From: an uncultured Chlorobiaceae bacterium
GTDB lineage: Bacteria; Bacteroidota; Ignavibacteria; UBA10030; SZUA-254
DNA length: 64,000 nt
Assembly (NCBI GenBank): GCA_964523395.1
Contig: CAZFXS010000009.1
Coordinates: 22,235-86,234, forward strand
Direction of reading: 5' to 3'
Of this stretch, positions 15,487 to 51,816 are shown one piece after another. Numbering within the stretch: the first letter of the stretch is position 1; each line of letters begins with the position of its first letter. The translations under genes and the position numbers were made by a program. A model generated the notes under the pieces. The model made no database searches. It worked only from the letters and a program-made list of their open reading frames with translations, and had not been told where the DNA came from.

Positions 15487-16203
15487 TTAGTTATTAAAAA
15501 CCTGGAAGAAACCGAAAATAAAAATTGCATCCCGCATAAAGTCCGACAACTCACGGATAATGTTCGCTCGTTTCGGAACAAAAACGGTATCTCCCGGGCG
15601 AATAACAGGAATGGATTCGATATTACCATGCTCCATATACCACGTTAAATCGACTTCGATGGGTTGCCGGTTTTGACCACCTCCTCGCAGAATTTTTATG
15701 TTGCGAAGGTCCGAATCCGGCGTTGTACCACCTGCTGTTGAGAGTACCTCGATGAGTGTAGCATCAGTAGTCAGTGTGTAATTTTCCTGCCTGGTAACCT
15801 CACCAAGCACTGTCACTTTTTGCGGAGCAGAACTGACTACCGTTATTGTAAGTTTTATTTCTCCCTGAATGTATTCAGAAAGCTTTTTGATCATTTGCTG
15901 CGTAAACTGCTCCTTCGTCAAACCGGCCGCCGTTACTTCACCCAACAGAGGTAGCGCAATCTGACCCAGTTCTTTGACTGTCGTCCGGGAATCAAATTCA
16001 GGATAGCCCCACACAGAGAGCTGGATCTGATCACCCTGCCGGATTACGTAATTATCAGATTGTGCCTCAGCCTGTATTGGCCGGCTTCCGGAACGGATAA
16101 TCTGAGTTAAACTATCCTTGGTCATATCTCCGCTACTGCAACCTCCGGCGACAATCGCCAAAAAGAGAGCAAACAGACAAACTTTGTTGATTGATACTTT
16201 CAT
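15487..16203 (-). CDS. wza: Short Wza-like polysaccharide export (OPX) lipoprotein lacking the C-terminal outer-membrane helix
   Basis: Poly_export motif (IRQGDQIQLSVWGYPEF) plus an SLBB-like domain. Start moved to ATG at 16203 (MKVSINKVCLFALFLAIVAGGCSS, lipobox AGGC). The track start at 16305 would sit almost on top of the sigma-54 promoter. Confidence 0.8.
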   Translation of the reverse strand: MKVSINKVCLFALFLAIVAGGCSSGDMTKDSLTQIIRSGSRPIQAEAQSDNYVIRQGDQIQLSVWGYPEFDSRTTVKELGQIALPLLGEVTAAGLTKEQFTQQMIKKLSEYIQGEIKLTITVVSSAPQKVTVLGEVTRQENYTLTTDATLIEVLSTAGGTTPDSDLRNIKILRGGGQNRQPIEVDLTWYMEHGNIESIPVIRPGDTVFVPKRANIIRELSDFMRDAIFIFGFFQVFNN

Positions 16204-16308
16204 ATTATAGAGGATGTTGTTATTAAGGCTAATCTTTGAGTTAATACTACCTGCCGAAGGAAGGAGCCAATAGCCCATTCCACAAACAGTTGAAGGCAGT
16301 GACATTAC

Positions 16309-25102: not shown

Positions 25103-25690
25103 ATGGCAGCACATCCCACATTCTTCCACAGAATTATTGAGCGCTTTCAGCGGCACTCAGTATGGGATCATATGAAAGGGCTCTGGTTTTCACGAAAATT
25201 TCAGAGTCATGGCATTCTTGTGGTCTCGGGCGGACTACCATTTCCGAAACTATTTAATGAAGGCGGCGAGGTCGTGGTGGGAAATTGCCAATTCTACAGC
25301 GGTGTTCGAATGGAAGTTGCAAAAGGAGCAAAACTAAGCATCGGCAAAGGAACGTACATCAACCGCAACACTGTTATCATAGCACATAAATTGGTTGAGA
25401 TCGGACGCAAATGTGCTATTTCGTGGGACGTCGTTATTATGGATTCCGACATGCATTATACCACTCCCGACGGAATCGAAGACAACAGACCGGTCATCAT
25501 TGAAGATTTTGTTTGGATAGGTTGCCGGTCCATTATTCTCAAAGGCGTTCGCATCGGAAAGGGCGCTATTGTTGCGGCCGGAGCGATTGTCACGAAGGAT
25601 GTTCCTCCCTACACTGTTGTGGGCGGTGTACCGGCCCGTGTATTACGCGAACTTGACCCAGCTACATCTGCGGCACTTCATGGAAACTAA
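25103..25690 (+). CDS. Left-handed beta-helix (hexapeptide-repeat) O-acetyltransferase
   Basis: Hexapeptide repeats ([48 protein letters not shown]). Confidence 0.85.
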
Positions 25691-26567
25691 TGAACTTGAC
25701 ATAGTACGGGAACCGTCGATACGACCTCAGGAGAATCTGAAGGTCCTGATCTATCATCGCATCCTTGATGATCCGCAAACATGCAACGAAGAAAGAGCCA
25801 TGTGCGTGCAGACGGACGAATTCAGGAACCAGCTTGCATTGCTGGAACGCTGGGGGTTTACGACTATCACGTTTCATGATTACCGTCTCTATCTTGAGGG
25901 CGCACTGAATCTTCCGCGCAAGCCAATCATCCTTACTTTTGATGACGGGTATGATGATATTTACAGAAATGCATTCCCGCTTCTTCAGGAGTTTGGAATG
26001 AAAGCGGTCGTATTTGCCATTGCGGACAGTCAAATAAAGACAAACACCTGGGATGCGTTCAACGGTGGCCCTTCACGACCGTTGATGAACCCTCAGCAGA
26101 TCCTTGAGCTTCATACTGCAGGATTCGAAATCGGCTCTCATTCATTATCTCATCCCGATTTGTCTTCTGTCTCAAAAGAAATTGTGTGGGAAGAAATTTC
26201 CCGATCGCGCATGTTGCTGGAAATCCTTCTCAATGCGCATGTTGAAAGTTTCGCCTATCCGTATGGTCTGACAACCGAGTCTGTTAAACGGATGGTTGCT
26301 GACGCTGGCTACACCACAGGTTGCGGTGTTTATTCCGGGCCGGCAAGATTCGGCGAAGATCCGTTTGACATCAGACGCATTCTCATCACCAACGGCATAG
26401 GAACACTTGGATTTGCCCTGCGCGTCCTTTCTCCGTATGAATACTACGGATGGTTCAAATGGAAGCTGAAAAAATTTATTGCACCATTAAATAATTCCAG
26501 ACCGCAGGCGTACGCACCACTGTCAGCCGGTACCCCCTCCGCACCATCTTCGGGGAAAGTTCTATGA
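25680..26567 (+). CDS. Polysaccharide deacetylase (CE4 / NodB-homology domain)
   Basis: [10 protein letters not shown] (motif 1), [13 protein letters not shown] (His motif). Start set to ATG 25680 (METNELD). The track ORF start at 25569 lies inside the upstream acetyltransferase. Confidence 0.85.
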
Positions 26568-27931
26568 ATACCAGTCAGTCATATACAAAGCTCCCGGTTG
26601 AGGAAAGTTTTCATCCTGCGAACGGACAGATAGCTTCACAACAATTGGAATTACGGCCCGCGGCAAGCTTTGAGGAAATCGCATCGTTGCGTGAAGAATG
26701 GAATTCCTTAGTAACAGAATCTTCATCGACGATATTTCAGACATACGAATGGCTCTCGACATGGTGGGATTATTTCGGCAAGCAACACGGGCGCACACTG
26801 CAGCTTCTTCTCATTTACGACGATCAACGGCTGGTAGGAATCGCGCCGTTATTTGTAAAGACAGCTTACATTTTCGGCAGGCCGGCATACCGATGCCTTT
26901 GTCTGGTGGGATCTGGAGATGCGTTTAATCGTTCATTCGGAATGTTTCTTGACGACGGTCCGAGCGATTATCTTGATATTATTGTACATCCGCAATTTAC
27001 GTCCGCGGCAGCGCAACATCTGAGCGAATACCTGAAAAATAATTCTTCTTCATTTGATGAAATAGAATTGCTGAATCTGCCTCAGGGAAGTTTTATACAC
27101 ACGTCACTCCTTCCTGCACTGAGAATATCCGGATATGTGTGCACTGTTACCGAGGCGGATGAGTGCCCACGACTGACAATGAACAGTTCTGTCGACGAGC
27201 TGTTGCATTCTCTTGATGCCAGCATACGGAGACGATTATCACAGGCGATAAAAGCGGCAGCGGAAAAGACCCTTTTCGCACTTCATCCCCCTACATCGCG
27301 CGCAGACGTGATCGCAACACTGGATGAGCTTATGATCCTTCATCAGCGCAGGTGGAGAAAAATGGGATATCCCGGACTCTTTTCAAAAAAGGAATTTTCT
27401 GATTTTCAATTTGCCATCACACGCGCTTTTCTGCCGAACGGCTGGATTTACATTAAGAGAGCCGTTGCTGAAGGCCGCACAGTTGCGGCACGTTTCTGTT
27501 TCATATTCAACGGAAGATTTTATGACTACCTATCCGGCTTCGCAGATGACTCACCGGCCGCAAAGCGCCGGCCGGGAATGGCCGTACTCCTTGCAATGAT
27601 GCAGGAGTTATTCGACAGCAATGTCCGTGAAATAGATTTTCTTCGGGGTGATGAGGCTTATAAGTTCGAGTTAACATCAACATCATTCAAAAATCTTAAT
27701 ATGGTCTCATCACTTCCAACCTCGAGGAGCAGGTTCGAGCAGTTTCTGCTCAACATAGCCCGCGGTAAGTCGTTTATTGCCTACCTCCTTGAACGCGAAT
27801 GGAACCTGCTGAAAGTTCAGTATCACGAACACAATATTCCAAAGTGCCTTTATTACTATGTAAAATTCAGGACAGGACGATTTGTTAACAAATTTTTCCA
27901 AGCGTCAACCGCTCCAGAACAACAGAAGTAA
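26564..27931 (+). CDS. FemAB/CelD-like protein (Acetyltransf_6 / BioF2-like GNAT fold), paralog 1 of 4
   Basis: Motif IFQTYEWLSTWWDYF...LVGIAPLFV is shared with the three paralogs downstream. C-terminal RGDEAYKFEL motif. Confidence 0.75.
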   Translation: MNTSQSYTKLPVEESFHPANGQIASQQLELRPAASFEEIASLREEWNSLVTESSSTIFQTYEWLSTWWDYFGKQHGRTLQLLLIYDDQRLVGIAPLFVKTAYIFGRPAYRCLCLVGSGDAFNRSFGMFLDDGPSDYLDIIVHPQFTSAAAQHLSEYLKNNSSSFDEIELLNLPQGSFIHTSLLPALRISGYVCTVTEADECPRLTMNSSVDELLHSLDASIRRRLSQAIKAAAEKTLFALHPPTSRADVIATLDELMILHQRRWRKMGYPGLFSKKEFSDFQFAITRAFLPNGWIYIKRAVAEGRTVAARFCFIFNGRFYDYLSGFADDSPAAKRRPGMAVLLAMMQELFDSNVREIDFLRGDEAYKFELTSTSFKNLNMVSSLPTSRSRFEQFLLNIARGKSFIAYLLEREWNLLKVQYHEHNIPKCLYYYVKFRTGRFVNKFFQASTAPEQQK

Positions 27932-29133: not shown

Positions 29134-30255
29134 ATGAAAACACTCACATTACTGACAACAGGATTGCAAAAACCCAGCCGGGCCATGGAAGAGGCCGACC
29201 AAACTCCCCGGGCCTCGTTATACGAACAGGAACTTCAAACCGAAATGGCGTATGAGGAATTTATGAACCGGGCACCAGGCATTCGCAAGTTTATTTATAA
29301 GCGATTGCCCGTCCAGGTTGCGCAGGTTATTGAGGCTTTCTTCCAGAGAAAGAAATATGACGTGATTATTTCATGGTCGGACCCCCACGCTCTCCTGTTT
29401 GCGTCAATACTAAAACTTACAAGAGCGAAAGCTCCCCATGTTGCAATGATGTTCTGGATTTCAAAACCAAAAAAGGCGGCGATATTAAAACGGGTTCACA
29501 CACACATTGACAAAATTGTGTTGTGGACATCTAAACACAGAGATTTTGCCATCAATGAACTTGGCATTCCGCCTTCAAAAATCGCGTTCATCAGGTACTA
29601 TGTTGACCAAAAATTCTGGCGACCAATGGACAGGAAGACAGATATGATCTGCTCAGCCGGCGTAGAGATGAGAGATTACCCGACACTTATTGAGGCGATG
29701 AAAGGGCTTGATATCAAATGCCATATCGCTGCCGGGATTGCGCGCGGAAAATTGTTTTCCACCGTCACTGCCATCCAGGAACAGGGCCCGCTTCCCGAAA
29801 CAATTACGGTCGGAAAAATGTCACCAACGGAATTGCGCGATCTCTACGCCCGTTCCCGTTTCGTAGTTATTCCGCTTTTACAATCTGACTCAGATAACGG
29901 ACTGACCGTTTTACTGGAGGCTATGGCAATGGGTAAGGCTGTCATCTGTTCCCGCATCAGGGGCCAGGTCGATGTAATTCAAGAGGGTAAAACCGGAATA
30001 TTCGTCCCACAAGGCGATCCTAAGGCGTTGCGTGAAGCAATTCTCCACCTCTGGAATAATCCCGAGCTCGCTGAACGAATGGGCCGTGAAGGAAGGGCAT
30101 ATATCGAAAAAAATAATACCTGGGATCAATTTGTTCAGAACATCAAACAGATTGTGGAAGAAGTTCATTCTCAGAACACAGCAATCTCAACCAAGAATAG
30201 CGCCAAACAATCTTCATTACCAGTGAATGCAACCGGTTCTACAATATCTTATTGA
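29134..30255 (+). CDS. Glycosyltransferase family 4, tandem paralog B
   Basis: EAMAMGKAVICSRIRGQVDVIQEGKTGIFVPQGDPKALREAI, and overall collinearity with 27956..29116. Confidence 0.75.
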   Translation: MKTLTLLTTGLQKPSRAMEEADQTPRASLYEQELQTEMAYEEFMNRAPGIRKFIYKRLPVQVAQVIEAFFQRKKYDVIISWSDPHALLFASILKLTRAKAPHVAMMFWISKPKKAAILKRVHTHIDKIVLWTSKHRDFAINELGIPPSKIAFIRYYVDQKFWRPMDRKTDMICSAGVEMRDYPTLIEAMKGLDIKCHIAAGIARGKLFSTVTAIQEQGPLPETITVGKMSPTELRDLYARSRFVVIPLLQSDSDNGLTVLLEAMAMGKAVICSRIRGQVDVIQEGKTGIFVPQGDPKALREAILHLWNNPELAERMGREGRAYIEKNNTWDQFVQNIKQIVEEVHSQNTAISTKNSAKQSSLPVNATGSTISY

Positions 30256-31837
30256 TACCGCAGTCAACGCACCTGACTCACCTGCCATCGTTTGCGACGA
30301 TCGGGTGGTGTCATACCGGGAATTTATCAACAAGATACATTCTCTTGCAAACCTTCTGACTCAGGAAGGCCTGAAAAAGGGTGATCGCGCGGTTATTCTT
30401 CTCCGTGATAAATCCGAATTTTTGGTTGCCTGTTTCTCACTGATGAACATTGGGGCGATTGCCGTTCCCGTACCTGAACATATTACGCTGCATTCATTAC
30501 AGGAAATTGTGAAAGACTCAACACCTACATTATTAATAACGAGCGCAACCGAGCTTCCGGACTTTCCTCGGCTACGTTCCAACATTACATGCAATCTCTT
30601 TCTCCTGGAAGAAAAGAATATTTCCGCGGACTACTCACATTCCATCGTCCTGCGTGAACAACACTCCAGCACCGCACCTGTCAAAGGAAATGACTTCGCC
30701 GGGGCATTTAGTGAAGATAAAGCGTTCATATGGTATACCACCGGATCCAAAGGAATGCAGCAGGGCATCGTATTCTCACAAAATAATATTATTTGCGGAG
30801 CTGTACGGCCGAACGCATTGACAGGAACATCCTCCAGCACACGTGAGTGCATTATGATGCCGCTGGCGCGGGAATTCGGTTTCAGCAGATGCTGTTCTCT
30901 CTTCTTTGCCGGCGGAACAGCCATTCTCAGCAATACGGTTTTTGACCCGGTATCAATGATTCAGAGTGTTTTGCGATACCGCTGCAATGCGTTATCGCTC
31001 ATGCCTTCTGTCATTACCAGCATGTTCGGTTATCTGGAACCTATGATCCAGCGAATAGGCGCACAGATTTCACTTATCAATATGGAAGCTTTTTCCATGT
31101 CTGCCGAGCATAAACTCCGGATGAAGGAACTGTTTCCCAACGCGAATATTTTTATGCACTACGGTACATCTGAAGCACCTCATTCAGCTATTTTGAATTT
31201 CAATGCCGACAACAGCAAACTCGAGACCGCCGGCCATCTTATCCCCGGCACGGAGATTTGTATTATTAGTAATCATGATTCAAAAGAAAGCGCCGTAGAA
31301 AGCGGTGAAGTTCACCTCCGTGGCGACAATATTATGATCGGTTACTGGAATAATGATGAACTGACCAATACAACTATCACCAGCGAAGGATGGTGTAAAA
31401 CCGGAGATATTGGTTTCATTGACGAAGAGAAGTATCTCCATCTCACAGAACGAAATGACGAAACGATTATCGTGGGCGGATTACGATTTTCTTCTCTTGA
31501 AATTGAAGAACATGTAAAAAGATATTTTCCTGAACATGAGGTTTTTGTTGTCGGCATTCCTGACCCGGCCGGGATACTCGGTGAGATACCTGTACTTTGT
31601 TATAAGGCGAACAACGGGAAAACATTAACTGCTTCAGACCTGTCACGGGTTCTTTCCAATAAGATCGACGGGGTGAAAATCCCGCGAATCGTGTATAGAA
31701 TAGAAACCGATACAGCAGAACAGTCGAAATTGACGCGAAAAGATTTGCGGTTGAAATTTCTTAACCAATTTTCAAAATCGGCACAGCACGAACAGCAGCC
31801 GCAATACAACAAGGAGCAATATTCACCGGAACACTGA
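30227..31837 (+). CDS. Adenylate-forming enzyme (AMP-dependent synthetase/ligase, ANL superfamily)
   Basis: N-terminal substrate region (APDSPAIVCDDRVVSYREF). Degenerate P-loop YTTGSKGMQQGI. Motifs GYWNNDELT and WCKTGDIGFIDEEKYLHLTER. Overlaps the upstream gene by 29 nt. Confidence 0.85.
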   Translation: MQPVLQYLIDTAVNAPDSPAIVCDDRVVSYREFINKIHSLANLLTQEGLKKGDRAVILLRDKSEFLVACFSLMNIGAIAVPVPEHITLHSLQEIVKDSTPTLLITSATELPDFPRLRSNITCNLFLLEEKNISADYSHSIVLREQHSSTAPVKGNDFAGAFSEDKAFIWYTTGSKGMQQGIVFSQNNIICGAVRPNALTGTSSSTRECIMMPLAREFGFSRCCSLFFAGGTAILSNTVFDPVSMIQSVLRYRCNALSLMPSVITSMFGYLEPMIQRIGAQISLINMEAFSMSAEHKLRMKELFPNANIFMHYGTSEAPHSAILNFNADNSKLETAGHLIPGTEICIISNHDSKESAVESGEVHLRGDNIMIGYWNNDELTNTTITSEGWCKTGDIGFIDEEKYLHLTERNDETIIVGGLRFSSLEIEEHVKRYFPEHEVFVVGIPDPAGILGEIPVLCYKANNGKTLTASDLSRVLSNKIDGVKIPRIVYRIETDTAEQSKLTRKDLRLKFLNQFSKSAQHEQQPQYNKEQYSPEH

Positions 31838-31877
31838 TTTACTATCGTCCATGCGACGATAATCACTAAACGTCTTG

Positions 31878-34043
31878 ATGCAAAATCTGACAACTATACA
31901 AAAAGAGTACTCTCACACCCGCACGCATCAACAAGTATCAATGGATAAATGCACCATTGAGATCGTACGGACGGAACAAGAGTTTGATGCCATTGAAAGC
32001 GAGTGGAACAGGCTTGTCGAAGAATCGCCTTGCACGGTATTTCAGACGTTTGAATGGGTACGTACATGGTGGAAATATTTTCACCGCCGCCACGAATTGA
32101 AAATCATGCTATTCCGGGAATCCGGTACGCTTGTGGGTATCGCACCAATGTTTATTCAGCGCGTGCGTGTGCTTGGCATTCCGCTGGCACGCAGGCTGCA
32201 ATTTATCGGCTGCGGTCTTTCAGACTATGCCGATTTCATAATCGCACCGGGGCGTGAGCAGGCAGTGCTGACCATTTTCGTAAACCGGATTCTCAATGTT
32301 GCAGAGAAATGGGATATTCTTGACCTGGAAGATGTTAATGAAACGTCTCCCGTGTTTCAGCATCTGCCGAATCTGTTGAGGCAGCATAATCTTCCGGTAT
32401 ACCGATATCAGGGCAACGTCTGCCCTCAGATTGCATTACCGGAAACGACGGAAATGCTGATGCAAAATCTGGGGTCAACTACCGGATACAATTTTCGGAG
32501 AAAATTTAAGAAATTGCAGTCGGGGTTTACTACAACAGTGGAATTATATCGTTCTGAAAATGACAACCTTGAAAAAGCGTACGAACAATTTTCGTTTATC
32601 CACGGTAACCGGTGGAGAAGCCAGGGGTATCCAAGCGCGTTTGATAAGCCGATACATAGCGCATTTCACATTGAGATTATCTCCAAATTCGCAAAACGGG
32701 ACTGGCTGAGGATGTTTTTTCTTAAAGCAGACACCCAACCTGTAGCCGTGAATTTTTCGTTTAACTACAAACAACGCATCTACATGTATCAAAGCAACGC
32801 GTATGGTACAGAGCAAATCATGAAATGCAGTCCGGGATTTCTTATTCGCGCCATTGCCATGATGGAAGGAATTGCTGAAGGATGCAGGGTCTTTGATTTT
32901 CTTCGCGGCGACGAAGACTATAAGTATAAGGAATGGAAGGCCGTTGACAGCAAAAACTGGTTCATACGCACATCATCGCCCCTCACGGCAAATAAGGCAA
33001 GATTTTATCTCTACCTTTTGCTCGAGTTATTAAAGAAGGCCAAAGAACGTTTTGCAAGAGAATACTATGAGTTTAAACGATTTAAAATTGTTAAAAAACC
33101 GACCGTCGAAATGACGGCAAATTATTGTCTCACGAAGTTTGCTCATCTCGTTCGTCTCGGTGCCTACTTTATTTCGCGGCATTCGCCTCTGGAATCGATC
33201 ATCGTCGGTGGCAATGGTTCGGCGGTTGGTTTTGATCCCGCCCGGAGCGCTGAACGTTTTCATAATGCGTCACTACAGACCTACACTCTGGGTGAAAAAA
33301 TCACCCGTGTTATCCGTTCTTACAAACTCAATAATCTGCTCTGGAGAATACGCGCGCGAATCTACAAGCCTCATGTTGTCGATGCCGTCACTTCCCAGCA
33401 TTCCGGCCTGATCAAGATTGTCGAACGGGGACCAGAACGGCAACTCATTCTCGACAATTCGACCCACTCAATATTTCTCCACCGCGGAAATTGGAATGAA
33501 ATTAAACGCGAGTATTGGGGCGCGATGTGTACTTCGCCGTTTACACTTCCAGAGAAACCCGAGATCCTGCTGTGCGGTTTGGGGGGAGGAACAATCCTTC
33601 ATCTGCTTCAACGGTCCATCCCTCCAGGTTCAGTTACGGCCCTGGAAATTGATCCGGTCGTTATTAACATTGCAAAAAAACATTTCAGCCTCGAGACTAT
33701 TCCCAATGTTACGGTCATTGAAGGAAACGCAGTTACAACGTTGCGGAAGCTTCAACTGCTCAATAAAAAATTTGATTTGATACTTGACGATGTCTTTTAC
33801 TCAGTAACGGGAACGTTATCCAACTATCAGCGATCGTTCATAAAACGGCTCTCTTCCATGCTCACCGCGGAAGGCACGATTATTTTTCAGCGCCCCATCG
33901 ACAGGCGGGAAGATGATGTTGATGCCGATAAATTCGTAAAAGCGCTTCGCAATATGAATTTCCAGGTTCAAGCAAAGAAAATCCGTCAACGATGGTGGAA
34001 TAATGTCATTTACTGTAAACCGGACGCATCATGGCACAACTAA
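31878..34043 (+). CDS. Fusion protein: FemAB/CelD-like domain (paralog 2) plus a C-terminal spermidine-synthase-like (PABS/class I SAM methyltransferase fold) domain
   Basis: N-terminal motif VFQTFEWVRTWWKYF...LVGIAPMFI and RGDEDYKYKEW. C-terminal ILLCGLGGGT (G-x-G-x-G), EIDPVVINIAKKHF, LILDDVF. Alternative start ATG at 31941. Confidence 0.7.
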   Translation: MQNLTTIQKEYSHTRTHQQVSMDKCTIEIVRTEQEFDAIESEWNRLVEESPCTVFQTFEWVRTWWKYFHRRHELKIMLFRESGTLVGIAPMFIQRVRVLGIPLARRLQFIGCGLSDYADFIIAPGREQAVLTIFVNRILNVAEKWDILDLEDVNETSPVFQHLPNLLRQHNLPVYRYQGNVCPQIALPETTEMLMQNLGSTTGYNFRRKFKKLQSGFTTTVELYRSENDNLEKAYEQFSFIHGNRWRSQGYPSAFDKPIHSAFHIEIISKFAKRDWLRMFFLKADTQPVAVNFSFNYKQRIYMYQSNAYGTEQIMKCSPGFLIRAIAMMEGIAEGCRVFDFLRGDEDYKYKEWKAVDSKNWFIRTSSPLTANKARFYLYLLLELLKKAKERFAREYYEFKRFKIVKKPTVEMTANYCLTKFAHLVRLGAYFISRHSPLESIIVGGNGSAVGFDPARSAERFHNASLQTYTLGEKITRVIRSYKLNNLLWRIRARIYKPHVVDAVTSQHSGLIKIVERGPERQLILDNSTHSIFLHRGNWNEIKREYWGAMCTSPFTLPEKPEILLCGLGGGTILHLLQRSIPPGSVTALEIDPVVINIAKKHFSLETIPNVTVIEGNAVTTLRKLQLLNKKFDLILDDVFYSVTGTLSNYQRSFIKRLSSMLTAEGTIIFQRPIDRREDDVDADKFVKALRNMNFQVQAKKIRQRWWNNVIYCKPDASWHN

Positions 34044-35248
34044 CAGCCCGACTCATTACCGCAGATTCGGAGTTTGATGCGCTGGAGAATTCCTGGGTTT
34101 CATTGCACAATGATGCACAGGGGACAATTTTTCAAACATTTTCCTGGATCCGGCTGTGGTGGAAAATTTACTCGTCAGCCAACACCCAGTTACGTATTCT
34201 GACAATTTGGAATACTCACCAGCTTGTTGGTGTGTTTCCTGTGTTTATTGAAGTCAATAATTTCATCATCTTTAAATTTAAACGCATGCGGTTTATGGGG
34301 ACATATGAGGTATACGGCGAGTACACGCCACTTCTACACCCGGCATATGAAACTGAAACCGTTCAGCACATAGCTGCATTTTGCAAAGAAGAAATAGAAA
34401 CAAAACGATGCGACGTCATAACTTTTTTTCGTTTTCCGTCAACGTCGACAGCAATGACATCGTTACTGCAGACACTTAGTACAAACCGGTACTATATGAA
34501 ATCAGATCCGGAAGCCGTAGCACGCGTCACGATGAATCTTCCCGGAGATTGGACGACGTACCTGAACGGATTATCCCCGACGGAAAAAGAACTTCTCAAG
34601 CGGCGCATGCGCTCACTTGAAAAGCACGGAGCAAGCGTGGAGATAATTACCGAGCTTTCGGATCATGAGTTTGATGATTTTGTACAATTGCATACGTCTG
34701 CATGGAGTGATAAAGGTATCAGCGGCTATTTCGGTTCGAAACGATTTGAACAATTCCAGCGAATGATAACCAAAGAGTTTATGCGACAGGGGGCATCACG
34801 ACTTTATTTTTTTAAGAAAGACAGTATCAGGTTTGCCGCTGTCCATGCATTTTATATGAACAAACAATGCTGCTTCTACCTGAGCGGGCTCAACAAACAT
34901 CATGAACTTATCCGGTACAGTCCCGGAAAAGTTCTTCTGAGTTATGTTATCAAGGATGCGATCTCCAAGCATTACGAAGTATTTGATTTTCAGGGCGGAA
35001 AGGAAGATTACAAGTTTCGCCTGGGGGGGAAAACAACTGGTTTTGCAAAAAGCGTGATTTGGAAAAAAGGCTTTCACTCAATCATAGTATTTATGGTGCT
35101 TGCCCTGCAGGGAATGGTAAATTTTCTCGTCGGCGGGGTATGGATGTATCATATCCTCCCGAGATGGCATAAGCTGACCTCGCGGATCTGGTCATCAAGG
35201 CATCATCATGCGGCTCTTGCTTCATCGCTATTGTTATTGCCGGAGTAA
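34031..35248 (+). CDS. FemAB/CelD-like protein, paralog 3
   Basis: IFQTFSWIRLWWKIY...LVGVFPVFI; GGKEDYKFRLG. Confidence 0.75.
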   Translation: MAQLTARLITADSEFDALENSWVSLHNDAQGTIFQTFSWIRLWWKIYSSANTQLRILTIWNTHQLVGVFPVFIEVNNFIIFKFKRMRFMGTYEVYGEYTPLLHPAYETETVQHIAAFCKEEIETKRCDVITFFRFPSTSTAMTSLLQTLSTNRYYMKSDPEAVARVTMNLPGDWTTYLNGLSPTEKELLKRRMRSLEKHGASVEIITELSDHEFDDFVQLHTSAWSDKGISGYFGSKRFEQFQRMITKEFMRQGASRLYFFKKDSIRFAAVHAFYMNKQCCFYLSGLNKHHELIRYSPGKVLLSYVIKDAISKHYEVFDFQGGKEDYKFRLGGKTTGFAKSVIWKKGFHSIIVFMVLALQGMVNFLVGGVWMYHILPRWHKLTSRIWSSRHHHAALASSLLLLPE

Positions 35249-35253
35249 GCAGC

Positions 35254-36408
35254 GTGCGCGTGGAAGAATTTTCGACAACAGAGGAATTTAAATCTTTAGA
35301 ACCGATTTGGAACACAACATTGAATAATTCATCACATCCAACCCTGTACCTCACGTACGAGTGGCTTTCAGTATGGTGGAAGTGTCATCAGACCCCTGAG
35401 AAAAGGCTATACATCCTTGTTATCCGGGATGATGAAACGGTATTTGCGATTGCGCCTTTTATGATTATCACCAGGACAATATTCGGAATACCGGTTCGCA
35501 CTATTTCCTTTCTTTCAATGATGCGGTACGCGTATTCAGCACTTAATTGTTCTGGTTCTCTCGATATTATAGTGACACAACGGCATGACGAAGTTTTTCA
35601 AGTACTCTTCGCGCATCTCAACGCAAACGCGAAACGGTGGGATTACATGAGGCTGCATCCGGTTCCGGAAAACTCATATACACTTAAAGCGCTGCAACAG
35701 GCTGCGACATCACAGGGGTTCCCATTTTCCACACGATTGGTCTTTGCCAGCGCGTGCATCACGGCGGCAACCTGGGAAGAATACACAAAGGCTCTTTCTC
35801 AGACGTTCAGAAAAGGCAACCGCAACATGTTAAATCGCCTCGCCCGAAGCGGGGCTGTAGAATTTATCCATGTCGATGGTTCAACCGATACCGGTGACGC
35901 ATTGCAAAAACTCCTTTCCATCGAGAAAAGAAGCTGGAAACGCGGAAATGGCATTGCGATTGATGCACCACAATACAAAAACTTTTATAAAGAGATATTT
36001 CACATTGCAGGAAATCACGGCTGGCTCCATCTCTGGATGCTTAAAGTGAATGAAACCTATATTGCCTACGATCTCTGCCTTGTATTCAATGGATCGGTCG
36101 AGGTACTGAAAGGCAGTTACAATACATCCTTTCGCGAATACTCTCCCGGCAGAATTATTTTTTCAAAAGAACTTGAATATTTTTTCCAGAATGGGATCCG
36201 CAAAATCAATCTATTGTGGGGTGATCTCACGTACAAATTGCGGTGGGCAAACCATCTTGAACGTCATCATGAAATCTACCTGTTCAATAACACGTTGTTT
36301 TCAAAGTGCCTCCATGCAGCATACATCACAACAGGGTTATACCGTGTGATTCGCCTGGCATGGAATTCTACGGAGAAACTTTGCTGGCGGCTGGGGGTCC
36401 AGGTATGA
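35254..36408 (+). CDS. FemAB/CelD-like protein, paralog 4
   Basis: LYLTYEWLSVWWKCH...VFAIAPFMI; WGDLTYKLRWAN. Confidence 0.75.
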   Translation: MRVEEFSTTEEFKSLEPIWNTTLNNSSHPTLYLTYEWLSVWWKCHQTPEKRLYILVIRDDETVFAIAPFMIITRTIFGIPVRTISFLSMMRYAYSALNCSGSLDIIVTQRHDEVFQVLFAHLNANAKRWDYMRLHPVPENSYTLKALQQAATSQGFPFSTRLVFASACITAATWEEYTKALSQTFRKGNRNMLNRLARSGAVEFIHVDGSTDTGDALQKLLSIEKRSWKRGNGIAIDAPQYKNFYKEIFHIAGNHGWLHLWMLKVNETYIAYDLCLVFNGSVEVLKGSYNTSFREYSPGRIIFSKELEYFFQNGIRKINLLWGDLTYKLRWANHLERHHEIYLFNNTLFSKCLHAAYITTGLYRVIRLAWNSTEKLCWRLGVQV

Positions 36409-37250
36409 CAGCACAACCGCTTACGGAATCCGCCAGAATGAAACTCCGTGCAGAAATATGGGGCACGGATATGGACCGCTACGTTCTGCGTAATCCATTT
36501 ATTGAAATCGGCGATATCCTCGTTGACGTCCGCGCTTTCTTTTCAGCGCGTGCCGGTTGTGATATGTGCGGGTTTTGCTGCAGCTGGGGGACTTCTATTT
36601 CCTCTGAAACTGCCAAACAGCTTGAACCGCACTTAGGCGAAATCGGTGAAAAATATATTCCGGCTGAACGCCGCGACAAATTGGGCTGGCACTTTGATAA
36701 GGATTGGGATATTCATTACACAAACATTATCAAAATCGATAACACTCATACAGGCTGTTGTTTTCTCTACAAAGACGGTGAGCGTTATCTTTGCTCTATA
36801 TATTCCTGGGCTCAGAATACAAAACGCGAAGTATTTGATTTTTGGCCATTCGAATGTACCATGTACCCCGTTTCAATACTGCCATATAAGGGGATTCTTC
36901 ACGAGGGAAAAACATTGCTGACTTTGAGAATGGCTCAAAGCTGGCACATCATCGATACATATGGAAATACCAGACCATTGCAGAAATCAATCTTAAAAAG
37001 AATTCTGTATGATCTTCGGTTATCACTGGTATATCGGTTACGCAAACTTGGGATTCATGTTAAGAATGAAGACACGCGGCAGGACTGTTACTTTAAAGAA
37101 GGGCACCATCAGAAACCATTGGCATATGAATATTTTGAACCACAACTTCGCTGGTATTTTGGAACCAATTTTTACGAGTCGATGCGCGTGGCGGCTGCAC
37201 GGCTGGAAATGCCCGCGAACGCCCGAATGGCAGAGGCTGCAAAACCATGA
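36405..37250 (+). CDS. YkgJ-family cysteine-cluster (putative Zn/Fe-binding, CxxCGxCC) protein
   Basis: CDMCGFCC motif plus a second Cys cluster (CCFLYKDGERYLC, FECTMYP). Start set to ATG 36405 (MTAQPL), an ATGA overlap with paralog 4. Also overlaps the GT2 gene at its 3' end. Confidence 0.6.
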   Translation: MTAQPLTESARMKLRAEIWGTDMDRYVLRNPFIEIGDILVDVRAFFSARAGCDMCGFCCSWGTSISSETAKQLEPHLGEIGEKYIPAERRDKLGWHFDKDWDIHYTNIIKIDNTHTGCCFLYKDGERYLCSIYSWAQNTKREVFDFWPFECTMYPVSILPYKGILHEGKTLLTLRMAQSWHIIDTYGNTRPLQKSILKRILYDLRLSLVYRLRKLGIHVKNEDTRQDCYFKEGHHQKPLAYEYFEPQLRWYFGTNFYESMRVAAARLEMPANARMAEAAKP

Positions 37251-38510: not shown

Positions 38511-38879
38511 ATGAGAAAAATCCTCATAATCGATGACGACGAAGTCCAGCTTATGCTTCAGCGGTCTATCCTAACTGCAGAGGGATATACTGTCTACACA
38601 ACAGCGGATGGACCACAGGGCATCACTTTGTTTAAGACACACCGGCCGGACCTTGTCTTACTTGATATCGGCTTGCCGAGCCTGAGCGGCATCGAAGTCC
38701 TGAAAGAGATCCGCCACCTTGATGATAAAGCCAAGGTGATTGTTATTACAGGATACGCGTCGGTTGAATCGGCAGTGCTTGCGTTACGCACCGGCGCACT
38801 TGATTATGTGCGAAAGCCATACGATGTCAAAGCATTGTTAAAGAAAATTGAACATGTTCTGTCGGTTGTCAGTGAATAA
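38511..38879 (+). CDS. Single-domain CheY-like response regulator (receiver only)
   Basis: Intact DD (IIDDDE), phospho-Asp (LVLLDIGLP), T (VITGY), K (YVRKP). Confidence 0.85.
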   Translation: MRKILIIDDDEVQLMLQRSILTAEGYTVYTTADGPQGITLFKTHRPDLVLLDIGLPSLSGIEVLKEIRHLDDKAKVIVITGYASVESAVLALRTGALDYVRKPYDVKALLKKIEHVLSVVSE

Positions 38880-38910
38880 CCGGGCAACCACAAGAAAGAA
38901 CGGTATCGAT

Positions 38911-40197
38911 ATGTATATGCGTTCGCTTATTATTATCATATTATCATTTTCCATATCGGAAATCTTATTCGCACAGCTTCACCACTTCAGCGTAGAGCAA
39001 AGCGGCGGCGGGATTATTTCCGATCAAACCGCGGGGATTCCTTTATTTATCCAGGTTGTAGCACAGGATTCAGTGAATAACACAGTAACTTCATTCAGCG
39101 GAACGGTGTCGATTACATCAACAGGCAATCTGACTTCCGGCGGAGGAACGTCGCCCTCCTTCATTTCCGGTATACTTTCTTCGCATAGTGTCACTATTTC
39201 ACCCGGAGGAAGCGTTAGCATTACTGCCACTCAAACTGCCGGTACGATCAACGGCACAAGTAACGTTTTTACAGTAAATAATCCTTTACCCTCAACAGCA
39301 AACATAAGCCCGAGTTCCAAAACGACGGGAGAAACCGGATTTACTATCACTGTCAACGGATCTGATTTTAACACCGCTTCTGTCGTACGCTTCAATGGTT
39401 CAGACAGAACCACAGTCTTTAATAATTCGACACAGTTAACTGCTACCATTTTAAGCTCAGATATTGACACATCGGGATCGTTTCCGGTAGCCGTATTTAC
39501 GCCGTCACCGGGGGGCGGAACATCCGCCGCGCAGCAATTCCTTGTAAATCCGCCCGTAGTAAATACCAAAATATATCTTGAAGGACCGTTTTCCGGAAGC
39601 ACAATGTCAACAGCTCTGCGAACAGGAAATTTTATTCCGCTTACCCAACCATACAATATTGCTCCGTTTACTTACGCCGGCACCGAAAATGTTGTGAGTA
39701 TTCCGGCAAATGTGGTGGACTGGGTACTCTTGGAATTACGGACAGGAACAGGCTCGGCGTCACGTGTTGCCCGCCGTGCCGCATTTATTAGAAATGATGG
39801 CGTGATTGTCGACCTTAACGGTACATCGCCGGTATCATTTCCAACAGCACCTATAGGAAATTATTTTATTGTCATTCACCACAGGAATCATCTTTCTGTT
39901 ATGACTCCATCAGCTGTAGCTCTTTCTCAATCGAGCTTACTTTATGATTTTTCCACCGGCCTCGCACAATATTTCGGCGGTAATGCTAAAGCACTTGGCG
40001 GTGGAAGATTCGGCATGTATGGAGGAGATTATTCGTCTGACGGTTTCCTGGACGCGGCTGATTTTATTGGCCCTGACAACGATGTTTTTCTCAGCGGTTA
40101 CCGCAAGTCAGATCTGAATCTCGATGGATTTGTGGATGTTTCTGATTTTGTGTTTCCCGATAACAACGTTTTTATAGGGACAAACGTACCGAACTAA
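38911..40197 (+). CDS. Secreted protein with Ig-like/TIG domains and a C-terminal dockerin-like double Ca-binding repeat
   Basis: Signal peptide MYMRSLIIIILSFSISEILFA (start moved to 38911). TIG-like FTITVNGSDFNTASVVRFNG. C-terminal DYSSDGFLDAADF and DLNLDGFVDVSDF repeats. No T9SS CTD. Confidence 0.65.
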   Translation: MYMRSLIIIILSFSISEILFAQLHHFSVEQSGGGIISDQTAGIPLFIQVVAQDSVNNTVTSFSGTVSITSTGNLTSGGGTSPSFISGILSSHSVTISPGGSVSITATQTAGTINGTSNVFTVNNPLPSTANISPSSKTTGETGFTITVNGSDFNTASVVRFNGSDRTTVFNNSTQLTATILSSDIDTSGSFPVAVFTPSPGGGTSAAQQFLVNPPVVNTKIYLEGPFSGSTMSTALRTGNFIPLTQPYNIAPFTYAGTENVVSIPANVVDWVLLELRTGTGSASRVARRAAFIRNDGVIVDLNGTSPVSFPTAPIGNYFIVIHHRNHLSVMTPSAVALSQSSLLYDFSTGLAQYFGGNAKALGGGRFGMYGGDYSSDGFLDAADFIGPDNDVFLSGYRKSDLNLDGFVDVSDFVFPDNNVFIGTNVPN

Positions 40198-40257
40198 CTT
40201 TTTTGGAGATTGCATCCCCTACATCTCCTTTTATGTGTATGGAATAACAAAATATCT

Positions 40258-43200
40258 ATGATGAGGTTGTTTATGAAAACGATACTTACGGTTTTGATGC
40301 TTCTGATGATATCGCAGCTTGCACTGGCACAGAACCCCACCTATGAGCTGGTTCTCAAAAATGACTCTTTGGTCAGTTCGACTATATATGAGTTCGACAT
40401 CGTGCTTCAGCGGACGGGGGGAACGGCATTTGAGCTTGCGAGCCTTCAGCCCATCATGACATTTAATACGGGTATTTCGAGCGGCTCGCTCACATTATCG
40501 ATGAATGCAGGAACATCAGAGCTCAACAGCTCGCAACAGCCGACGACGATGACTATCAATGGAAACGAGCTGAGAATTAATCCCAGAGTTCCGCCAGGAG
40601 CCGGATCGGGAACAATCATATCGACATCACCCGGATTGCGGGTTGGCCGTTTCCGGCTTACCAGCACTACGGCCTTCGAAAATCAAACGGCTGATATTGC
40701 CTGGAAAAATGATCTGAATCCATTTACGAGGGTGTTCGCGTATGTCAGTGGTGTCAACACCGAAATAACAGATTCCCTGACTCATTTGAACCAACTGGCG
40801 AATGCTAATCTGTCAGTTCCTTTTATTACAACCTCATCGCCATTGCCGGGCGCAACATCCGGGACACCATACTCGCAGACTTTAACCATCTCGGGTGGTT
40901 CCACACCATATTCATTTTCTCTAGTATCGGGAACCATAGCACCCGGACTCTCTCTGTCATTTTCAGGAAACATTACCGGTACCCCCACAACCGCAGGTAC
41001 ATTTAACTTTACGGTAGCTGTAATAGACGGAGCAGATCAAACCTCAAACAAAGAATTTTCAATAACCACCGTACCCGGATCAGCTTCTAAGCTTGTATAT
41101 ATTCAACAACCTACGACCACCGCAGTAACTGCCACAATTACTCCGGCTGTAACAGTCCAATTACAGGATGCGGCCAGTAACAATGTAACAACGGCAGGTG
41201 TATCCACAACTATTGCTCTTTCCTCCGGAACCGGCACTTTGAGCGGTACGCTTACTCAGTTAACAAATGCATCCGGTATTGCTACATTCAATAACCTCAG
41301 CATTAACCAGACCGGATCGAAAAATTTGACAACTTCAAGTACAGGATTGACGTCAGCGCTCAGTAACTTATTTACGATTACCCCCGGTCCGGTTTCCCAA
41401 GTAGCATTTATTCAGGAACCTACGAATACCACTGCCGGAAGCACTATTTCCCCAAGCATTTCTGTACAGTTACGTGATGCGCTGGGCAATAATGTCACTA
41501 CTGCCGGAGTTTCCATCACTCTTTCACTGACAACAGGTACAGGAACATTGAGCGGGACAACTACAAGAACGACCAATGGGTCGGGTCTCGCGGTTTTTGA
41601 TGACATCAGCATAAATCTGGCTGGTTCAAAAAATCTTACCGCATCGAGTACTTCCCTGACCTCAGATATAAGCAATGCATTTACCATCGCGGTCGGTCCT
41701 GCAAGCGTGCTTGCGATAATCCAACAACCGACCAATACCACTGCCGGCGTCAACATCTCTCCCTCGATTACCGTCCATGTCCAGGATGGATTTGGGAATG
41801 ATGTGAGCGGTGCGGGTGTCTCTATCGATATGACACTATCATCCGGAACCGGAACATTGGGTGGCAACACCTCACGCAGTACCACAGGGGGAGGTATTGC
41901 CACATTTAATAATTTAAATATCACTGCGGCCGGCGTTAAAGTGCTCACAGCTTCGAGTACCGGCTTGACCTCTGCGGTAAGCAACAGCTTTACAATACTC
42001 CCTGCATCCGCTTCACAGGTAGTGTTCGTCCAACAACCCACGAATACAGCGGCGGGAGCAACCATTACACCGGCAGTTACCGCACAGATACGCGATACTT
42101 TCGGTAATGATGTCGCCACGGCAGGAACATCTGTTACCATGTCGCTCTCCAGTGGAACAGGCACACTCAGCGGGACTACATCGCAACTGACTAACAGTTC
42201 AGGACTTGCAACATTCAGCGATCTGAGCATCAATCTTTCCGGAGCAAAGAATCTCACGGCAGCAAGCACAGGCCTGACATCAGCGATTAGCAGTGCATTT
42301 ACAATTTCCGCCGGAAGTGCCACGCAGGTTGTTTTCATTCAGCAACCGACAAATACAACGGCAGGAGCGACAATCAGTCCCAGTGTTACTGTACAACTCC
42401 GCGACGGTTTAGGAAATAACGTATCCAGCGCAGGAGTGTCTATTACTCTCTCATTAAGCTCCGGTACCGGAACGCTTAACGGCACCACCACACAATTGAC
42501 TAACGCTTCAGGTCTTGCAACATTTAATAATCTTAGTATTACCGCGGCCGGATCAAAAGCACTTACAGCCTCGAGCAGCGGACTCACCTCCGCAATCAGC
42601 AATTCATTCACAATCTCACCGGCCACTGCCACTACCCTTGTATTTTTGCAGCAGCCGACATCGACAACCGCAGCAACCGTAGTAACTCCGGCCATCACCA
42701 CAGAACTACGTGATAATTTTGGGAATACCGTTCCCAATGCCGGCGTCTCGATCACAATGGCATTAAGTTCCGGCACCGGAACTCTCTCCGGTACAACAGT
42801 TAGAACGACCGATGCATCCGGCGTTGCAACATTTAACGATTTAAGCATTAACCTCGTCGGATCAAAAGCACTCACCGCAAGCGGCAGTGGGTTAACTCCG
42901 GCAGTAAGCAATGCGTTTACCATTTCTGCCGGCGGTGCAACACAAGTCGCATTTGTACAGCAGCCGACGACAACAACAGCAGGCGCAACAATCAGTCCAA
43001 GTATCACCGTGCAGTTGCGCGACGGAGCAGGGAATGATGTCGCAAGCGCGGGGGTTTCCGTCACTCTTGCCCTTACGACCGGAACGGGTGTATTAAGCGG
43101 AACATTAACACAGCTTACAAATGCCTCGGGATTGGCGACTTTTAATGACTTAAGCATCAATCTTTCCGGTTCAAAAAACATTACCGCGTCGAGCGGAGGC

Positions 43201-51743: not shown

Positions 51744-51815
51744 GGCGCTATCGTCTAACGGTTAGGACGGAGCCCTCTCAAGGCTCAAATACGGGTTCGA
51801 TTCCCGTTAGCGCTA
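51744..51815 (+). tRNA. tRNA-Glu (anticodon CUC), 72 nt, CCA not encoded
   Basis: Manual cloverleaf: D-arm TCGTCTAACGGTTAGGACG typical of tRNA-Glu. Anticodon stem GAGCC/GGCTC with loop CTCTCAA (T33, CTC, A37). T-arm ACGGG-TTCGATT-CCCGT. G1.U72 wobble at the acceptor end. Confidence 0.8.
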
Positions 51816-51816
51816 C

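Follow-up and report, generated by a model that had tools for sequence, protein, structure and literature searches.

Gene organisation of the locus and reality of the fusion

The window, a stretch of DNA of 64,000 nucleotides, contained an EPS operon in which a Fem-like gene was joined to a spermidine-synthase-like (PABS-like) module. The operon also encoded Wzx, Wzy and glycosyltransferases, and no carrier-protein gene was found in it. The genes and protein segments considered here were all located on the + strand:

25680..26567, +: CE4 (PgaB/IcaB-like) deacetylase (Pfam, 99 bits; NCBIfam)
26564..27931, +: Fem-like paralogue 1, 455 aa (Acetyltransf_6, 1.2e-21; 27% identical to the N-terminal domain of the fusion)
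30227..31837, +: acyl-CoA-ligase-type AMP-binding enzyme (Pfam, NCBIfam; synteny in L001-L003)
31878..34043, +: whole fusion gene, 721 aa plus stop (single ORF, start and stop read directly, 12 full-length homologues)
31950..32975, +: Fem-type double-GNAT domain, aa 25-366 (Pfam, AF2, Foldseek)
32985..33179, +: basic two-helix hairpin, aa 370-434 (AF2 helices 370-406 and 410-434)
33189..33371, +: inter-domain linker, aa 438-498 (poorly conserved, variable columns in alignment A1)
33372..34037, +: PABS-like domain, aa 499-720 (four-strand beta subdomain, then Rossmann core)
33567..33593, +: motif I, LLCGLGGGT, aa 564-572 (aligned with SpdS and METTL13, and with the SpeE controls in A3; regex on 33 members)
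33645..33656, +: E590-I-D592-P593 (invariant in A1, A2 and A5; HMMER alignments)
33771..33797, +: F-D633-L-I-L-D637-D638-V-F (HMMER alignments; A3)
34031..35248, +: Fem-like paralogue 3, 405 aa (Acetyltransf_6 paralogue)
35254..36408, +: Fem-like paralogue 4, 384 aa (the type fused to a PABS-like module in P0156 and P0161)

Four Acetyltransf_6 paralogues, 20-27% identical to one another, were present in the window and, as described in the first-pass annotation, only the fusion protein carried the extension. This amounted to about 285 aa past the unfused orthologues of ~435-450 aa; unfused homologues displayed ~58% query coverage. Translation may start at the TTG at 31875 or the ATG at 31878, resulting in 721-722 aa, and the fusion gene ended in a TAA, with a 13-nt overlap onto the following Fem-like gene and its ATG start.

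The same annotation had proposed a fusion of a FemAB/CelD-like domain to a PABS fold, with two separate genes and an unnoticed stop or frameshift between them as the case to be excluded. The proposal was borne out: the frame, read across 31878-34043, was uninterrupted, and 12 full-length homologues (704-734 aa, 38-93% identity) displayed the same architecture, with C-terminal motifs that were invariant or nearly so (alignment A1). Since the fused form is common to these 12 proteins, which stem from independent JGI, ENA, NCBI and Logan assemblies, it is neither a chance product nor an assembly artefact. Frameshift and misassembly were thus ruled out, and separate genes joined through a sequencing or assembly error retain practically no probability, even though a split form exists elsewhere (L005, L011). 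Fusion of a Fem-like protein to a spermidine-synthase fold is therefore real, rare and recurrently evolved. Literature on PF13480/Acetyltransf_6 and on Ignavibacteria EPS with FemAB yielded nothing describing this architecture, nor was it found in literature on spermidine-synthase-like methyltransferases in polysaccharide synthesis.

The AMP-ligase gene, directly upstream of the fusion in fused loci, is a candidate supplier of an acyl donor. The CE4 gene was conserved in L001, L002 and L005 and is a candidate source of a free sugar amine. A periplasmic CE4, uncoupled from a cytoplasmic enzyme, was considered and rejected; with M38 as the likely start, the protein had neither signal peptide nor hydrophobic segment. 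Inspection of N-termini and hydropathy detected export signals neither in the fusion protein nor in CE4. The same trio of Fem-like protein, CE4 and AMP-ligase is encountered in PEP-CTERM/exosortase-A EPS loci (TIGR03019, TIGR03006, TIGR03098), and TIGR03098 was the second-best NCBIfam match of the ligase (182 bits). However, scores remained far under the cutoffs (182 vs 592; 24 vs 276), TIGR03019 (PEP-CTERM FemAB) was absent among the 15 NCBIfam families matched with E<=1, no exosortase was seen here and no PABS-like partner has been described there.

The Fem-like half

The N-terminal half matched Acetyltransf_6 (PF13480) at aa 204-349 (nt 32487-32924) with 84.1 bits for a cutoff of 22 (E 1.4e-23), and the fusion protein had no Pfam match to PF02388 (FemABX) at E<=1. 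JGI labels its homologues as CelD/BcsL family (PF13480, COG5653). AF2 pLDDT exceeded 90 across the domain, whose best Foldseek match was FemX of W. viridescens (1ne9, 4.7e-12, TM 0.68-0.71 normalised to target); FemX (6snr) and FemA (1lrz) of S. aureus and Sbb17 (9wqw) were further top matches. The double-GNAT fold is thus like that of FemX/FemA/FemB, Orf11/Sbb17, PacB and VlmA (TM ~0.7 normalised to target). Fem-type enzymes form amides on free amines and Orf11/Sbb17 acylates the amine of an amino sugar; glycylation of such an amine from Gly-tRNA by a Fem-like enzyme is documented (PMC12945691). FemX/A/B and the cassette of the window also have in common that several paralogues are present in one pathway. 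In contrast to FemABX, the domain belonged to PF13480 instead of PF02388, its hairpin was C-terminal to the core whereas that of FemA is inserted, and an acyl-CoA-ligase-type gene adjoined the fusion.

The hairpin (aa 370-434) contained 15 K+R for 5 D+E, and it belongs to the Fem-like module since unfused orthologues have one too. In the predicted model it would be compatible with, though not diagnostic of, tRNA binding. No tRNA-specific feature was identified for the PF13480 domain, and the acyl-CoA-ligase-type gene next to the fusion speaks for CoA as the donor form. Beyond the hairpin, pLDDT dropped to 50-77 for aa ~440-490, within the linker.

The spermidine-synthase-fold domain and its probable reaction

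Pfam matches at aa 556-677 were Methyltransf_31 (3.9e-8), Spermine_synth (PF01564; 6.4e-7, 29.5 bits for a gathering cutoff of 22.9) and Methyltransf_25, while the fusion protein displayed no sequence signal of PF17284. As such single-sequence searches do not separate PABS from generic methyltransferases, a family profile was compared to the PDB and fold searches were performed. The profile gave the same E-value for SpdS and METTL13-C; the closest folds were spermine and spermidine synthases, and structural neighbours were mostly true aminopropyltransferases. AF2 and fold searches supported both halves of the protein, so that the PABS fold initially suggested for the extension holds, beta subdomain included. 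In Pfam score, Methyltransf_31 outperformed PF01564. The beta subdomain (aa 499-534) carried an invariant G518-x-E520-R521-x-L523, and Y546/W547 are, by eye only, the putative counterpart of SpdS Gln79/Tyr79.

The motifs quoted in the first-pass annotation were all found, namely LLCGLGGGT (aa 564-572), EIDPVVINIAKKHF, which starts at aa 590, and FDLILDDVF (aa 632-640). The aminopropyltransferase signature that the second of them had been taken for was absent. G570 occupies the place of the dcSAM-selecting Asp in the GGGDGG of aminopropyltransferases, and the acidic position of GGG[DE]G was Gly in all 33 fused and free members (as GLGGG[TS]), whereas both SpeE controls kept Asp/Glu. E590 aligned to the Glu that binds ribose in SpdS and METTL13 (HMMER), and D638 to the amine-activating SpdS Asp173/METTL13 Asp575 (HMMER). 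D638 was invariant across the 35 sequences of A3, SpeE included (C-terminal position 149), and nearly invariant elsewhere. The second, putrescine-binding Asp of DxxDP (SpdS Asp176) was replaced by Y641. Retention of the first Asp of DxxDP and loss of the second thus point to an acceptor that carries an amine but is unlike diamines such as putrescine.

In spermidine synthase, the acidic GGG[DE]G residue holds the amine of dcSAM and repels the carboxylate of SAM, and mutation D103I at that Asp abolished aminopropyl transfer while creating methyltransferase activity (PMC3725402). Its loss here makes use of dcSAM unlikely, SAM use not being thereby proven. Between the aminopropyl and methyl transfers first proposed as alternatives, methyl transfer from SAM is the better supported, because the acidic residue and the second Asp are lost and SpeE cutoffs are not approached (41.8 bits vs 304 at best). 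The rival reading, a true aminopropyltransferase moving the aminopropyl group of dcSAM onto a polymer-linked amine, may invoke the closest folds, PF01564 above its gathering cutoff, the name of the best NCBIfam match (polyamine aminopropyltransferase) and the amine-activating D638. It appears quite improbable in view of the Gly in 33 of 33 members, a loss that kills SPDS activity (PMC3725402), of the missing second Asp and undetected PF17284, and of the NCBIfam equivalogs TIGR00417, PRK00811 and PRK04457, which scored far under cutoff (41.8 vs 304, 21.3 vs 260 and 17.9 vs 249.55, respectively). Were it nevertheless true, aminopropylation may lead to a more radical outcome, a covalent glycan-polyamine conjugate. 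SpeE, SpdS and SpmS (PF01564) share beta subdomain and Rossmann core with the C-terminal domain; they differ in the two acidic residues and PF17284, and the domain, which reached 6-14% of the equivalog cutoffs, was encountered Fem-fused in an EPS operon and not with polyamine genes.

Transfer of another part of SAM, such as 3-amino-3-carboxypropyl, as by CntL- or nicotianamine-synthase-type enzymes, would be tolerable to a site that lost the Asp repelling the carboxylate, and weak profile matches to CntL/D-histidine 2-aminobutanoyltransferase were obtained (E ~0.09-0.1). These were at chance level, far below SpdS and METTL13, and the literature search found no precedent in the PABS fold, which makes this the least credible of the chemistries considered.

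Judged by its motifs, the domain is in the state of METTL13-C, a SAM-dependent alpha-N-methyltransferase. With AdoMet as its cofactor, METTL13-C methylates an alpha-amine; its fold resembles that of SpdS, and its Asp575 corresponds to SpdS Asp173 (PMC6109062). GLGGG[ST] motif I, the 7-beta-strand SpdS-like fold and the Asp575 equivalent are common to this eukaryotic eEF1A alpha-N-terminal methyltransferase (MT13-C, PDB 5wcj) and the domain. Identity was only ~23%, METTL13-C acts on a protein substrate, and its second Post-II Asp, Asp577, one of the substrate-groove residues along with Asn647, aligned with F640, which leaves the METTL13 substrate pocket unconserved. The MT13-C core that was crystallised (residues 470-699) is devoid of the beta subdomain, and the two domains may not be orthologous. 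In plants, putrescine N-methyltransferase (PMT) is a PABS-fold enzyme switched from dcSAM to SAM by losing the same Asp (D103I). PMT retains its residues for putrescine binding and shares ~60% identity with SPDS, whereas the domain forms a remote branch with another acceptor pocket.

Free-standing forms, distribution and possible role

The module was also found as a free-standing gene of ~250 aa, always beside Fem-like genes: it adjoined them in the four informative contigs out of four, L013 and L015 being too short to show neighbours and therefore left out of the count. P0121, at first sight a free-standing 241-aa form, was dropped as a fragment since its frame opens at base 3 of a contig of 1180 bp. 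In the window, L005, L011 and L012, the PABS-like module, free or fused, was immediately followed by an orthologue of paralogue 3. This paralogue, and not the domain fused to the module in the window, was its most constant neighbour. PABS-like modules were fused to both paralogue-2-type and paralogue-4-type Fem-like domains. Because orthology of the N-terminal domain differs between fused forms, fusion occurred independently, at least twice, with different Fem-like paralogues; the accompanying NJ tree of modules carried no support values. The orthologous group comprised 18 clusters among 1.84 billion representatives. Related genome loci all belonged to MAGs of the Ignavibacteria/Chlorobi group, four of them emanating from a scan of genome contigs with two peptide patterns, which is no census.

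This recurrence bears on two further alternatives. A catalytically dead domain, serving as scaffold, oligomerisation module or SAM-sensing regulator of Fem-like transferases, would suit the association with several different Fem-like paralogues. Spermidine-synthase-fold proteins are oligomeric, which suits it too, and so does N617, which replaces the adenine-contacting Asp of the other members in the window protein and in the homologue 93% identical to it (A1). Contrary to what a dead domain would lead one to expect, the cofactor-binding glycine loop, ribose Glu and catalytic Asp were kept in free-standing as well as fused forms, at identities of 29-50%, and inactivity seems accordingly a poor prospect. 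Methylation from SAM of a non-amine acceptor (a sugar hydroxyl, an acyl or aminoacyl donor before transfer, or an unrelated step) is likewise considered unlikely, since the conserved D638 corresponds to the residue that activates the amine in each of the two characterised branches of the fold (PMC6109062) and repeated fusion or adjacency to amide-forming Fem-like enzymes suggests a shared amine-bearing intermediate. N-methylation of an amine on a sugar building block thus stands as the most likely activity, with cofactor and acceptor as we infer them from conserved residues and gene context.

A pathway to which we give an even chance would place the fusion in the cytoplasm as a bifunctional enzyme whose two activities, (amino)acylation and N-methylation, tailor an amino sugar in the Wzx/Wzy repeat unit, the cofactor, acceptor and order of steps being those we infer. 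CE4 would de-N-acetylate one of the amino sugars in the lipid-linked unit, and the Fem-type double-GNAT domain would form an amide on a free amine, the CE4-freed amino sugar being the likeliest acceptor. Either aminoacyl-tRNA, the donor used by FemX and Orf11/Sbb17, or a CoA thioester from the adjacent AMP-ligase could serve as donor. The C-terminal domain would bind SAM and N-methylate an amine of the same intermediate, like METTL13-C and plant putrescine N-methyltransferase; this appears likely because the dcSAM acid and distal diamine Asp are lost while the ribose Glu and amine-activating Asp are kept. Weighing against this model are the unconserved METTL13 pocket, N617, the prevalence of true aminopropyltransferases among the structural neighbours, the equal profile E-values for SpdS and METTL13-C, and paralogue 3 as the most constant neighbour of the module. 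More speculative, and rather improbable, is an elaboration in which three to five Fem-like paralogues, CE4 and the carboxylate-activating enzyme would assemble a short stem, acyl or non-ribosomal peptide in nature, on a de-N-acetylated amino sugar in the EPS repeat unit, much as FemX/A/B act on lipid II, the module being a bacterial METTL13-C counterpart capping the terminal alpha-amine by (poly)methylation. Such a stem would amount to a peptidoglycan-like, permanently charged exopolysaccharide decoration.

Fem-like genes of the PF13480/TIGR03019 type are widespread in environmental EPS loci and their chemistry is obscure. A conserved partner that was fused at least twice offers a strong handle on their product, which would be an amine-bearing intermediate subsequently alkylated. 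If N-methylation is correct, this would be the first bacterial example, from a glycan pathway, of SAM-dependent N-methylation by a repurposed spermidine-synthase fold; to our knowledge, plant PMT and eukaryotic METTL13 are the sole documented instances so far.

GLGGG motif I and the Post-II Asp were also encountered in free-standing ~215-aa 'spermidine synthases' and MFS/spermidine synthase fusions (NF037959), uncharacterised PABS-fold proteins devoid of the dcSAM Asp. At 22-28% identity they did not belong to the orthologous group, with E-values of 1e-10 to 1e-19 compared to <=1e-30 for its members; the partner in NF037959 is an MFS transporter and not a Fem-like protein, and the query scored 33.9 for a cutoff of 40. 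Automatic labels such as 'spermidine synthase' or 'polyamine aminopropyltransferase' on GLGGG-type PABS-fold proteins should be considered with caution.

The fused gene and its homologues

The fusion of a FemAB/CelD-like to a spermidine-synthase-like (PABS-like) domain proposed in the first-pass annotation was confirmed as one gene, a single continuous frame with no stop between the halves:

31875 (TTG) or 31878 (ATG) to 34043, plus strand, fusion gene, 721 aa (722 aa from TTG)

Its TAA stop overlapped the ATG of the next gene, Fem-like 3 (start 34031), by 13 nt. Acetyltransf_6 (PF13480) was matched at aa 204-349 (1.4e-23), and aa 556-677 displayed overlapping Pfam matches to Methyltransf_31 (3.9e-8), Spermine_synth (6.4e-7) and Methyltransf_25. 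Spermine_synth exceeded its cutoff (29.5 vs 22.9 bits); Methyltransf_31 had the better E-value, and the top NCBIfam match, PRK04457 'polyamine aminopropyltransferase' (aa 513-705), remained far below its cutoff (41.8 vs 304 bits). Both domains are members of known superfamilies.

The fusion is genuine, and it is conserved: among 5.8 billion proteins searched, 12 homologues spanned the full length (704-734 aa, 38-93 % identity), drawn from JGI, ENA, NCBI and Logan assemblies. Over 100 further proteins, ~420-500 aa long, matched the N-terminal ~58 % only. The 93 % homologue was already labelled 'CelD/BcsL family acetyltransferase / ...methylase' by the JGI pipeline; a literature search found no published description of the architecture or cassette. 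Among the 13 aligned fused proteins, G518, E520, R521, W547, G548, G567, G569, G570, E590, D633, D637, R705 and W706 were invariant in the C-terminal half, and L568, G571, D592, P593 and D638 nearly so. The core kept across fused and free orthologues consisted of GxERxL, WG, GLGGG, E590, D592, D633 and D638.

A pattern-limited scan of 185,579 species genomes recovered four loci, every one in a MAG that carries the name Ignavibacteriae, Ignavibacteriales or 'uncultured Chlorobiaceae'. Named unfused homologues belonged to Ignavibacteria, Bacteroidota, Kryptoniota and Rokubacteria MAGs. Three long Acetyltransf_6 proteins without PABS-like domain, P0091 (764 aa), P0101 (776 aa) and L004:7235-9946 (903 aa), look like Fem-like units duplicated in tandem or fusions of another kind. 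P0076 displayed a LemA domain.

Residues of the C-terminal half

The motifs quoted earlier were present: LLCGLGGGT (aa 564-572), EIDP (from aa 590) and FDLILDDVF (aa 632-640). In alignments to solved spermidine synthases, E590 fell on the ribose-binding Glu and D638 on the leading Asp of DSSDP (Asp173 in human SpdS); G570 and Y641 occupied the positions of the dcSAM-binding Asp of GGGDGG and the second Asp of DSSDP (Asp176), respectively. The aminopropyltransferase signature reported for this half could not be recovered: by regex, the 33 family members, fused and free-standing alike, contained neither GGG[DE]G nor the signature, while both patterns occurred in each of two SpeE-type controls that the same search had supplied.

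The aminopropyl amine of dcSAM is bound by the GGGDGG Asp, which presumably also repels the carboxylate of SAM; with D103I, SPDS lost its own activity and acquired that of a putrescine N-methyltransferase, and in T. maritima the corresponding D101I lowered kcat ~2000-fold (PMC3725402). The C-domain of METTL13 resembles SpdS most closely; it binds AdoMet/AdoHcy and adds three methyl groups to the free alpha-amine of eEF1A, its Asp575 being the counterpart of SpdS Asp173 (PMC6109062). Its motif I, GLGGGS, follows the same pattern as GLGGGT of the fusion.

The C-half thus retained the adenosyl-binding and amine-activating residues of both the SpdS and METTL13 branches and, in contrast to aminopropyltransferases, lacked their dcSAM-selecting and diamine-holding residues. 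From this combination we infer that it would N-methylate, with SAM as donor, an amine unlike putrescine, and it is likely a bacterial example of the SpdS-to-methyltransferase switch. The motif argument is tempered by some divergent bona fide SpeE enzymes, e.g. that of H. pylori, which carry atypical motifs. A much larger family (P0122-P0151 and P0260), made up of 'spermidine synthase' proteins of ~215 aa and of versions fused to MFS, displayed GLGGG in place of GGGDGG; such proteins are probably mis-annotated as aminopropyltransferases.

Free-standing modules and separate fusions

Searched exhaustively with phmmer, 1.84 billion cluster representatives gave 2450 matches to the C-terminal module at E<=1e-3, of which only 18 reached E<=1e-30. 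The latter mixed fused proteins (P0005, P0156, P0009, P0161) with free-standing proteins of ~230-260 aa; fused P0012 was a weaker match. At locus L005, an unfused N-domain orthologue (P0042, 46 % identical) preceded, with a 4-bp overlap, a 254-aa gene related to the C-half (38 % identity, E 2e-51). The free gene was followed by two Acetyltransf_6 genes in L011/L009 and by one in L012, in an otherwise unrelated neighbourhood; in L014 such genes lay on either side, one adjoining and one two genes off. Fem-like genes hence accompanied it in all four informative contigs, L013 and L015 being too short to count.

BLAST against the four Fem-like paralogues of the window assigned the paralogue-3 type to the gene that directly follows the PABS-like module, free or fused, in the window, L005, L011 and L012 (41-46 % identity); paralogue 3 is the most constant neighbour of the module. 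Towards its C-terminus, paralogue 3 (34031-35248) has a stretch of strong hydrophobicity (aa ~347-372, KD 2.12) that may anchor it in the membrane.

P0156 (653 aa) and P0161 (654 aa) were likewise Acetyltransf_6 and PABS-like fusions. Their N-domains shared 34 % (271 bits) and 31 % (196 bits) identity with window paralogue 4 and only 21-24 % with the N-domain of the window fusion. By these similarities they are orthologous to paralogue 4 rather than to that N-domain, so the module has joined Fem-like paralogues of different types on two or more occasions. Fused and free forms were interleaved in an NJ tree (computed without support values).

The EPS locus and a possible pathway

The window carries a Wzx/Wzy-type EPS locus, beginning with:

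15487-16305, minus strand, Wza

Then came Wzz/GNVR, a P-loop kinase-like protein, Wzy_C, FkbM methyltransferase, WecG glycosyltransferase, Wzx, GT4, hexapeptide acetyltransferase, CE4 deacetylase, Fem-like 1, two GT4s, an AMP-binding enzyme, the fusion, Fem-like 3, Fem-like 4, a CxxCxxCC/DUF3109 protein and GT2. This order was kept in L001-L003, though fusion proteins there were only 41-52 % identical. The AMP-binding enzyme was of acyl-CoA-ligase type (PRK06187, 231.6 bits; TIGR03098, exosortase-A-associated ligase, 182.4 bits; both below cutoff), and the operon contained no carrier-protein ORF. CE4 resembled PgaB/IcaB N-deacetylases; its longest ORF (TTG 25569) overlapped the hexapeptide acetyltransferase gene by ~120 nt (25569-25690), and the real start is probably ATG 25680 (M38), giving ~295 aa as in orthologous loci. 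Neither the fusion nor CE4 displayed a signal peptide or TM segment, so both should act in the cytoplasm. A cytoplasmic step of a Wzx/Wzy pathway has a nucleotide sugar or lipid-linked repeat unit as substrate.

A precedent is Orf11/Sbb17 of BD-12 biosynthesis, a Fem-like enzyme acylating an amino-sugar amine (PMC12945691; PDB 9wqx). In the window, CE4 would free a sugar amine, the Fem-like paralogues would acylate it afresh, with an aminoacyl group or an acyl group other than acetyl, and the PABS-fold module would methylate an amine of the acylated intermediate, the fusion gene thereby combining one acylation with the methylation. The folds, motifs, sequence conservation, synteny and repeated fusion are observations, while the identity of cofactor, acceptor and donor and the order of steps in this model are what we infer. 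It offers a clear and testable way into the chemistry of Fem-like EPS enzymes rather than a new principle.

Variant loci L004 and L011 carried ATP-grasp-like genes, a different carboxylate-activating enzyme that again points to amide-forming chemistry. In L004:233-6171, the locus of P0013, this protein was unfused with no PABS-like gene adjoining; upstream of the Fem-like genes lay phosphosulfolactate synthase (ComA), 2-phosphosulfolactate phosphatase, Ldh_2-type dehydrogenase, RraA-like and ATP-grasp-like genes. Such a gene set resembles a pathway to sulfolactate-type organic acids, a hint that lineages differ in the acyl group their Fem-like enzymes attach.

The putative metal-binding CxxCxxCC/DUF3109 (Rv0495c-like) protein, located between Fem-like genes and GT2 in some loci (window 36306-37250; L011:11231-12082), has no obvious role in polysaccharide synthesis. 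Downstream of the cassette there was always a 122-aa stand-alone response regulator (window 38511-50919 for the whole downstream set; L001, L002, L004, L005, L011), assigned solely by position and length in the window and by Pfam matches in orthologous loci. It was followed by a ~420-740-aa protein (window 38848-40197, with a 'choice-of-anchor Z' repeat) and lastly by a giant protein of 3400-4030 aa (3569 aa in the window, 40210-50919), which carries Flg_new_2/Ig-like domains and matches Por_Secre_tail faintly. Their recurrence suggests a co-inherited surface-protein/T9SS cargo module. The window also contained:

676-749, tRNA-Gln(CTG) gene
51744-51816, tRNA-Glu(CTC) gene
6124-11205, minus strand, very large ORF flanking the EPS region, 1693 aa
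51876-60731, minus strand, very large ORF flanking the EPS region, 2951 aa
60954-63998, minus strand, very large ORF flanking the EPS region, 1014 aa
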